A stretch of 41,822 nucleotides of DNA from a virus (Duplodnaviria; Heunggongvirae; Uroviricota; Caudoviricetes): the IMG/VR virus record IMGVR_UViG_2897346870_000006. One strand, given 5' to 3'. Of the stretch, positions 33,251 through 34,429 are shown one piece after another. The first letter of the stretch is position 1; the number at the start of each line of letters is the position of its first letter. The position numbers and the translations under genes were made by a program. The notes beneath the pieces were generated by a model. That model did not search any database. It saw only the letters and a list, made by a program, of their open reading frames with translations, and was not told the origin of the DNA.

Positions 33251-33589
33251 CTATTTCCCTGAATTTACGACGAAACTGTTCGAGCGGGCTGAAGCACTCA
33301 TGCTCATAGCCTTCGCGGAGGTAGATAACACGTTGTGTTTCCGGTTCCCAACGAATGACTCTGACGGGCACTCCGTAGTGATCTTTGAACCAGCGGTTAA
33401 CTTGTCGCAAAGGACTGTCTCCTTCTGCCGGTTGAAATCACCCACAGCCCACTCAGCAAAGCTGTGGGTTACAATTTCCCTGTCACCTGGTACATTTACT
33501 GCATAGCAATACTCCACCTTCGCTTTTCCACCCGGTACAGGAAGCGCAATCAGTTGCGAGCGACGGTAGTGTGTTGTTAAACTGTTCAT
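33251..33589 (-). CDS. Hypothetical protein (112 aa)
   Basis: ORF translationally coupled to the upstream gene (ATGA overlap); low-complexity C-terminus; may be spurious. Confidence 0.3.
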
Positions 33590-34137
33590 GCGTTAGTTTC
33601 TCCACAGTCACGACACGCCACGGCGCCCGGAGCTGCACACTCGCGGGCGTCATTACTTTCTGAAATGCAAAAGATTTTGTAGACCAGTGCTGCATGCTCC
33701 TGCAGCTTCGAAATTGAGAGATACAGCTCGTCGTTAATTGCTGTCTTCTCATGCGGTTCCACTACACCGTCTTCGATTGCTGAACGAATCTGTTTTGAAT
33801 AACTGCCGATCTGTTCAATGACTTCCAGCAGACGCTGGTTAATATCGGCGTTGTCCACATCCTCGACGTCAGGAAGAGACACAAATACGCCATTTGCAGA
33901 CTGCGCCACAGCATCAGCAATGAAGTGAGTGCCACCAGCACGCTGTAAAACCATTGCCCATCCCAGCGGGAAAATCTGATCGCCATCGGCACGAAGGCGG
34001 TTAAATAATGCGTTCTCTGTTACGTCCAGCCAGTCAGCAGCTTCAGCGTAACCCCCCGGCAACGCTGCGATAGTTTTTCTGACAGCTTTCACGTACCACT
34101 CAGGCTGTTTTTCTATTTTCCAGTGATGCTTACCCAC
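33586..34137 (-). CDS. cII-position regulatory protein (YdaT-like), GTG start
   Basis: GAGGAG ribosome-binding site 6 nt upstream of GTG at 34137, immediately after the cro stop; the ORF-track extension to 34248 overlaps cro and is unlikely to be translated. Confidence 0.45.
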
Positions 34138-34165
34138 GGTTAACTCCTCGTTTCTGTGGTTACGT

Positions 34166-34429
34166 TTACGCAGCTGAACCGCTAACTTTTGAATAGCACT
34201 CAGGTAATCCATCATTTGGATTGGGGTAAATATCAGGACGCAGTTCATGAGGGGTCACGGACCAGTTTCCCAACTCACAAAGTTGTAAAACCCGTTCTGA
34301 CGGGACTTGATTGTTAATTACCCAATTAGCGACGGATTGAGTGGACTTAAAACCAAAGTGACGGGCTACTTCAGATAAAGATTTTCCCGCAGCTTTTACT
34401 GCTTTCTCTGTGTAGTTTTGAGATGACAT
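34166..34429 (-). CDS. cro: Cro-like HTH repressor (YdaS-like)
   Basis: 87 aa; HTH region SLSEVARHFGFKSTQSVANWV; C-terminal LCELGNWSVTPHELRPDIY resembles the YdaS family; divergent from cI. Confidence 0.7.
   Translation of the reverse strand: MSSQNYTEKAVKAAGKSLSEVARHFGFKSTQSVANWVINNQVPSERVLQLCELGNWSVTPHELRPDIYPNPNDGLPECYSKVSGSAA

Follow-up and report, generated by a model that had tools for sequence, protein, structure and literature searches.

YmfL, a homologue of the phage 186 CII protein, and two predicted leftward promoters in the lysis-lysogeny module of a lambdoid Escherichia coli prophage

We have analysed the genes that lie between the immunity repressor and the replication initiator in a viral DNA of the Caudoviricetes, the IMG/VR record IMGVR_UViG_2897346870_000006; all coordinates given here are those of the window, i.e., the whole stretch of 41,822 nt. 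The region is the lysis-lysogeny control module of a lambdoid prophage of Escherichia coli (cI / cro / ymfL / ymfM / replication), and it is of the e14/SfII type and not of the Rac type because the protein encoded downstream of cro is YmfL and the next gene is ymfM. YmfL is in turn a homologue of the CII protein of phage 186. The reading that we favour, and to which we would give a probability of about two thirds, is that of an e14/SfII-type decision region in which YmfL plays the part of a 186-CII-type activator of two leftward lysogeny promoters, one (P1) at the junction of cro and ymfL and the other (P2) inside ymfM. The cro-ymfL-ymfM operon reads on the minus strand of the window, and both predicted promoters point towards cI. 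A preliminary description of this DNA, made from its letters alone, had seen here a YdaS/YdaT-like pair of genes in the cro and cII positions. It had both open reading frames right, down to the GAGGAG that precedes the GTG start of the 183-codon downstream gene (Table 1), and both frames are far beyond what chance would produce.

The downstream protein is 96% identical over its full length to YmfL of the e14 prophage of E. coli K-12, it matches the NCBIfam equivalog model for YmfL (NF041471) with 169.9 bits (cut-off 90), and the Prokaryotic Genome Annotation Pipeline (PGAP) names a 99.9%-identical copy "protein YmfL". Its wider relationship is to the CII protein of phage 186. The Pfam profile of this family (PF06892, Phage_CP76), which gives 163.6 bits with 186 CII itself as a control, scores 51.5 bits with YmfL (cut-off 26) over profile positions 5-141 of 146, and YmfL also matches PHROG 101, described as "CII-like transcriptional activator". 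The AlphaFold2 model, of moderate confidence (predicted local distance difference test, pLDDT, 74), has an N-terminal helix-turn-helix (HTH) domain and two long C-terminal helices, and the top eight Foldseek matches of this moderate-confidence model were all crystals of 186 CII (6vli/6vpe/6vmh, E 2.5e-4, template modelling score 0.53-0.66, 145 columns). The gene that had been placed in the cII position thus codes for a member of a CII family, and similarity to CII-type regulators is present. The family is unrelated to that of lambda CII, whose Pfam profile (Phage_CII) gave no match among the Pfam hits at E<=0.01. A PDB sequence search with YmfL gave no match, and its similarity to 186 CII is undetectable pairwise (BLASTP E=14); pairwise BLASTP, like hhalign of a YmfL alignment against the single sequences of 186 CII or YdaT, is too insensitive for homology, and we have relied on the curated profiles.

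By aligning the DNA upstream of ymfL across ca. 70 related loci of Enterobacterales (phylogenetic footprinting), we found that similarity vanishes before a near-invariant block, AACCACAG-(Shine-Dalgarno)-TTAACCGTGGGTAA. The block forms an inverted repeat (CCACAG-N14-CYGTGG) whose half-sites are separated by 20 bp from centre to centre, and its right half holds the GTG start codon of ymfL. In the module the motif occurs at exactly two places, both of them in the early-right operon: the block itself (site 1) and a perfect palindrome within ymfM (site 2). For the whole window, allowing up to one mismatch, 0.24 matches were expected, and those seen were the two sites and an isolated match with one mismatch at 9094-9119; a third copy upstream of int was looked for in the window and not found. 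We find site 1 in 67 distinct related contexts, irrespective of the type of Cro and though the adjoining cro sequence differs completely, and site 2 in 60 distinct contexts, some 683-700 bp further downstream. Loci that have neither ymfM nor the DUF4222 gene still keep site 1, so that YmfL is its only constant neighbour, and it is for this reason that we take YmfL to be the probable binder. The residues N46, R47, L48, and R49 of the predicted recognition helix of YmfL do not vary, just as the CCACAG half-site does not, which adds to the argument.

The same site might account for the unusual start of ymfL, which we propose to be a GTG because the start codon belongs to the promoter-distal half-site. 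GTG is the start in 66 of the 67 contexts, and also in the K-12 and PGAP annotations, and a purine-rich Shine-Dalgarno sequence is kept at the position upstream of ymfL in related loci. Three loci without site 1 beside ymfL (L011, L013, and L076) start this gene with ATG and not with GTG, which fits the idea that the half-site holds the GTG in place. In the window the GTG is found 28 nt past the stop codon of cro, on the same strand. A longer version of the protein (220 aa, starting at an ATG at 34248 and overlapping cro by 83 nt) is unsupported, as the homologues cluster at 183-185 aa and conservation starts at W6.

On the cI-ward strand, at both sites of the window, a TAnnnT hexamer is found 23 nt after the proximal half-site, where we place the -10 elements of P1 and P2. 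The conservation of this arrangement is strand-specific. Leftward, the hexamer stands at exactly 23 nt in 56/67 contexts of site 1 and in 60/60 of site 2 (within +/-1 nt, in 67/67 and 60/60), and rightward it is never found at this distance (0/67 and 0/60). When 49 classes of unrelated upstream sequence are considered, 42 have it at offset 23, 19 at offset 1 and at most five at each other offset, the 19 being explained by the conserved TTAC flank of the half-site. Depending on the type of Cro, the site 1 hexamer falls in different codons of the Cro C-terminus or in the Cro stop codon, and at site 2 the inner bases vary (TACCAT, TACTCT, TACATT, TATTCT, and others) with T1, A2, and T6 fixed. The constraint is therefore on the DNA and not on the protein.

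If the hexamer occupies -12 to -7, the half-sites are predicted to be centred at -38.5 and -58.5. The half-sites of 186 CII have their centres at -38 and -58 of the pE promoter, in inverted orientation and two helical turns from one another (PMC6593788), and in 186, too, the site (ATGTTTG-N13-CAAACAT) starts at the initiation codon of cII. Judging by sequence, then, the target of 186 CII and the predicted targets of YmfL would be alike in their inverted half-sites 20 bp apart, in their position at about -38/-58 of a leftward promoter and, for site 1, in the overlap with the start codon of the activator gene. We also considered TACAAT as the -10 element of 186 pE, but it is ruled out by the published -38/-58 positions; TAAAGT fits them, and with it the geometries of 186 and YmfL agree. 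The likeness extends to the proteins, which belong to the same Pfam family and each have a C-terminal tail that is unstructured (presumably so in YmfL), 186 CII (PDB entries 6VLI, 6VPE, and 6VMH) being the best structural match of the YmfL model, and to the order of the genes, since on the lytic transcript each activator comes after the gene equivalent to cro and before that of a division inhibitor (fil in 186, ymfM here). The differences are nevertheless considerable. The half-site is ATGTTTG in 186 and CCACAG here, Fil and YmfM have no similarity, 186 is a P2-like phage with Apl whereas the window is lambdoid with Cro, and there is one target promoter in 186 vs. two predicted here.

Several points weigh against the existence of YmfL-dependent promoters at these sites. 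We found no experiment on YmfL binding or activation in the literature. A generic sigma-70 consensus scan flagged neither P1 nor P2, and by our own count P1 matches about 5 of 12 consensus positions, a weakness that is expected of an activator-dependent promoter but that DNA without any promoter would show just as well. The pattern TAnnnT is a loose one, and the related loci were recruited via YmfL similarity and are themselves phylogenetically related, so that the counts given above are not counts of independent events. Besides, site 2 and its -10 hexamer are part of coding sequence. Together with its flanks (33432-33478), site 2 forms an extended palindrome, the sense RNA of which would form a hairpin of 11 bp (-22.8 kcal/mol, z -4.8).

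The alternative that survives best takes these points at face value: YmfL would be a DNA binder of the CII family, but the CCACAG-N14-CYGTGG elements would not be promoters activated by it. They could be the target of another phage or host factor, the place where YmfL represses rightward transcription or stands in its way as a roadblock, elements acting at the RNA level, or a recombination "linker" at a mosaic junction. The strong hairpin of site 2 and the failure of P1 and P2 to reach the threshold of the sigma-70 scan speak in its favour, and so does the location of site 1 exactly at a mosaic boundary. The homology of the window to phages SfII and SfIV ends sharply at ~34161, in the cro/ymfL junction and no more than 2 nt from the CCACAG half of site 1, indicating that the cI-cro cassette and ymfL are separate mosaic units. 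However, the RNA of site 1 does not fold stably (-5.5 kcal/mol, z +0.3), and a hairpin can account neither for both sites nor for the strand-specific -10. Neither an RNA element nor a linker explains why TAnnnT, on one strand only, should keep a fixed 23-nt offset at both sites, in coding as well as non-coding DNA. In spacing and position, the half-sites reproduce the geometry of 186 CII at pE, and site 1 is kept where YmfL is the sole constant neighbour. We therefore consider this alternative unlikely.

According to the mechanism that we propose for YmfL as an activator, a LexA-like, self-cleaving cI repressor would be transcribed divergently from an early-right operon composed of cro, ymfL, ymfM (the product of which would inhibit the FtsZ ring), the DUF4222 gene, and the O-like gene. 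YmfL would be made from the lytic pR transcript, after Cro, and, probably as an oligomer, would bind the inverted half-sites two helical turns apart, near -38/-58 of the weak leftward promoters, switching on both P1 and P2. The transcript from P1 would run antisense through cro into cI, which would establish repression and interfere with pR; P1 would correspond to pE of 186 and to pRE of lambda. From P2 there would come additional leftward transcription, antisense to both ymfM and ymfL, which could damp the division inhibitor, YmfL itself, and the downstream replication genes, loosely like the paQ promoter of lambda. In lambda, the CII activator made from pR switches on the leftward promoter pRE at the cro/cII junction, antisense to cro and feeding cI, and a second antisense promoter, paQ, lies within a downstream lytic gene. 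The circuit of lambda CII with pRE, pI, and paQ is in this sense analogous to the one proposed here for YmfL. Lambda CII uses direct TTGC-N6-TTGC repeats that flank the -35 element.

The turnover of the activator might also be similar to that in 186. Residues 160-183 of YmfL, ending ...GETNA, have pLDDT <50 and yet are conserved, and this presumably disordered tail may act as a degron; the parallel with 186 CII, which is unstable via FtsH and RseP and becomes stable when its last 24 residues are removed (PMC7708051), is suggestive. As for the target of P2, YmfM is the SfiC cell-division inhibitor of e14, for which a filamentation phenotype has been published. We are evenly divided on a more general proposal, namely that YmfL modules form a portable "activator plus target" cassette with two 186-pE-like, YmfL-dependent leftward promoters, one with a distal half-site that includes the GTG of the activator gene and one within ymfM, by which the lysogeny decision would antagonise the division block through antisense transcription.

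The protein encoded upstream of YmfL is, on its sequence, a Cro of the YdaS family, as the preliminary description had it. It matches the Pfam profile YdaS_toxin (PF15943) with 43.8 bits (cut-off 30) and is 35% identical to K-12 YdaS, ELRPDI motif included; its closest solved relative is a "Cro protein" (PDB 3bd1, E 1.9e-5), and it falls in PHROG 35, "transcriptional repressor". The upstream neighbour of the YmfL homologues is a small HTH protein in 66/66 loci, 41 of which match YdaS_toxin and 28 P22_Cro, and these neighbours are highly divergent in sequence. In fact, a relative of the window cro is absent from all of the 76 species-representative YmfL loci, for which reason this gene could not be footprinted. 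A YdaS-type Cro beside YmfL is therefore a common combination, yet not a fixed, co-evolving pair.

Given that the closest named relative, e14 of K-12, is a defective prophage, one might see in the module a decaying remnant that has no current function, as in cryptic e14. This is very improbable, since every gene of the module is intact here and the phages SfII, SfIV, and several Escherichia phages, which have been isolated as such, share the segment of O, DUF4222, ymfM, and ymfL at 96-98% identity. Many E. coli chromosomes carry prophages that match the region at 99.9% identity. One of these, which we used as comparator (NZ_AP022222), is a lambdoid prophage located beside intD and a tRNA-Arg gene; its genes include those for tail, head, terminase, lysis, a Q-like protein, and integrase, and it can be aligned with the window. 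The comparison with e14 itself (ymfK (cohE) / ymfT / ymfL / ymfM) shows both likeness and difference. The two have in common ymfL and ymfM (96% identical), the gene order, the GTG start, and the palindrome of site 2. The immunity cassette is another one: the window Cro is only 34% identical to YmfT over 53 residues, and the window cI is not of the e14 type, as it has no match in the e14-type loci L007 and L008. Besides, the prophage of the window appears complete vs. the cryptic e14, and its replication gene is intact vs. the fused ymfN of e14.

That the two genes are a toxin-antitoxin pair, one product poisoning the cell and the other neutralising it, is harder still to believe. It is suggested by the Pfam names "YdaS_toxin" and "YdaT_toxin", and ectopic expression of YdaS/YdaT of Rac is reported to be toxic. 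But the downstream protein is not YdaT, and the debate on whether such pairs are toxin-antitoxin systems or regulators, from which the preliminary description had left the role of the pair open, concerns YdaS/YdaT and is not transferable to YmfL. The only published tests of ymfL known to us found no filamentation when ymfL of e14 was overexpressed from pBAD24 (filamentation maps to the neighbouring ymfM) and no significant effect on viability when ymfL was deleted. Both proteins have HTH DNA-binding folds and are encoded between a cI repressor and replication genes, and YmfL occurs beside many Cro sequences that are unrelated to one another, which is unlike a co-evolving toxin-antitoxin pair.

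We give practically no credit to a Rac/CP-933P-type YdaS/YdaT pair, which would make the downstream protein a POU-domain regulator like YdaT, binding TTGATTN6AATCAA (the published YdaT operator), for the YdaT-like identity that had been expected does not hold at the level of sequence, profile or fold: there is no match to the YdaT profile PF06254 at E<=0.01, with which the K-12 YdaT control scores 44.7 bits; the pairwise comparisons, insensitive as they are, give E=11 in BLASTP against K-12 YdaT and a probability of 0.5% in hhalign of a 26-sequence YmfL alignment; the POU-like YdaT structures 3c4r and 8bt1 are outside the top 50 PDB hits of Foldseek with the pLDDT 74 model; the operator is absent from the immunity region, its only matches in the window with up to two mismatches being at 23856 and 28479, with 2.4 expected by chance; and the protein matches a different family (YmfL / PF06892). 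What remains of the resemblance to Rac and CP-933P is a Cro of the same Pfam family, a gene in the position of ydaT, and a shared logic of repressor, Cro, and "cII-position" regulator.

The features of the module are collected in Table 1. The cI gene is divergent from cro across an intergenic region of 106 bp; its start is that of the PGAP annotation of a 99.9%-identical genome, and the longest open reading frame begins at 34479. The CTACTTAAAATAG repeats of this region are presumed from their position to be OR operators overlapping pR/pRM, and the sigma-70 consensus scan gave a weak pRM-like match at 34466-34495. At the downstream end of the operon, the O-like gene contains an iteron-like tandem array (32869-32932) of 4.3 copies of a 15-bp unit, CAGATTTTGACGGGT, which is probably the phage origin. 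The same array also codes for a repetitive DPSKSDASKS peptide segment.

Table 1. Features of the control module, in window coordinates; binding sites and promoter elements are predictions.
Feature	Position	Strand or location	Basis and remarks
cI-type immunity repressor (HTH + S24 autopeptidase)	34536..35240	+	Peptidase_S24 60.5 bits, HTH_3 25 bits; PHROG 4 "transcriptional repressor"
Operator-like direct repeats, CTACTTAAAATAG x2	34462-34474 and 34485-34497 (span 34462..34497)	cI-cro intergenic	100% identical 13-bp copies, 23 bp apart; repeat search
cro, 87 aa, ATG start, TAA stop	34429-34166	-	YdaS-family HTH protein
P1, predicted -10 TAACTT	34183..34188	+	Antisense through cro into cI; predicted start ~34195
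Shine-Dalgarno sequence of ymfL, GAGGAG	34144..34149	-	6 nt before GTG; inside N14 spacer of site 1; direct sequence reading
Site 1, CCACAG-N14-CCGTGG (minus-strand reading)	34134..34159	Overlaps ymfL start codon and Shine-Dalgarno sequence	Predicted YmfL (CII-type) binding site
ymfL, 183 aa, GTG start, TGA stop	34137-33586	-	186-CII family protein
ymfM, 112 aa	33251..33589	-	ATG overlaps ymfL stop (ATGA); 96% identity to K-12 YmfM; PHROG 1170
P2, predicted -10 TACATT	33491..33496	+	GTTACA at -35 position; antisense to ymfM and ymfL; predicted start ~33503
Site 2, perfect palindrome CCACAG-N14-CTGTGG	33442..33467	Inside ymfM, codons ~42-50	Exact match on both strands
DUF4222 gene, 59 aa, TTG start after AAGGAG	33231..33410	-	PF13973 67.3 bits; PGAP-annotated
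O-like replication initiator	32300..33241	-	PHROG 391 "replication initiation O-like", E 5.5e-135; downstream end of early-right operon

The ymfM gene has no PGAP annotation in the near-identical (99.9%) genome. In its 3' half it overlaps the DUF4222 gene by 160 nt in another frame (33231-33589, minus strand), and over the shared DNA the DUF4222 frame is conserved across species at 70-86% vs. ca. 40-55% for the frame of the YmfM C-terminus. There are related loci in which YmfM is short (ca. 70 aa) and DUF4222 is located elsewhere. It may merit checking which of the frames, ymfM or DUF4222, yields the filamentation seen with ymfM clones. The hairpin of site 2 is directly upstream of the ribosome-binding site of the DUF4222 gene, where it could have an additional role at the level of RNA.

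Some neighbouring genes and comparisons along the window are also worth describing. A small protein encoded at 31483-31842 (minus strand), labelled by PGAP as "LexA family transcriptional regulator", has only the LexA DNA-binding domain (PF01726, 68.7 bits), without the S24 cleavage domain, and could be a non-cleavable LexA mimic; a PerC-like regulator (31809-32303) adjoins it. Directly downstream of cI on the lysogenic strand (35411-36487, plus strand) there is an orphan ATPase of the ParA family (358 aa), for which no ParB partner was obvious among the listed open reading frames. Two segments of the window, one near the lysis/iss region (24097-26195) and the other downstream of parA (36850-37402), fail to align with the comparator, which is elsewhere 96-99% identical, and are probably local replacements of morons or cargo. 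The comparator, in turn, has its major capsid gene split by an insert of ca. 11 kb (L004:11237-22276) with genes for an integrase, a TIR-domain protein, an Icd-like inhibitor, a primase, a single-stranded DNA-binding protein, a capsid and a decoration protein of its own, a small terminase, and Abi. It looks like a capsid-forming satellite integrated in the capsid gene of its helper. Alignment rules out such a split gene in the window, which is continuous at ~17345; the insert is found only in the comparator.

As a pair of genes, what we describe is routine prophage biology: both belong to known families and are already annotated, as YmfL and as a YdaS-family regulator. The target sites of YmfL and the arrangement of two promoters with a 186-like geometry may be a new prediction, as we found no published description of them in a non-exhaustive search of the literature. 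The correction of the family assignment has consequences for other prophages, since the gene in the cII position beside a YdaS-type Cro can be either YdaT or YmfL, two unrelated proteins, and the literature on YdaS/YdaT, the toxin debate included, should not be carried over to YmfL loci. Modules of the YmfL type are widespread in the lambdoid prophages of Enterobacterales, e14 and the Shigella serotype-converting phages among them, and YmfL, a protein that has never been characterised, is encoded by e14 of E. coli K-12 as well as by the Shigella phages SfII and SfIV. With the sites, the geometry, and the two promoters predicted here, there are exact coordinates with which its presumed role as an activator becomes directly testable. 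If the prediction is true, an activator of lysogeny would be tied to the antisense control of YmfM, an SOS-inducible division inhibitor, and this control could bear on the filamentation phenotypes of clinical E. coli.

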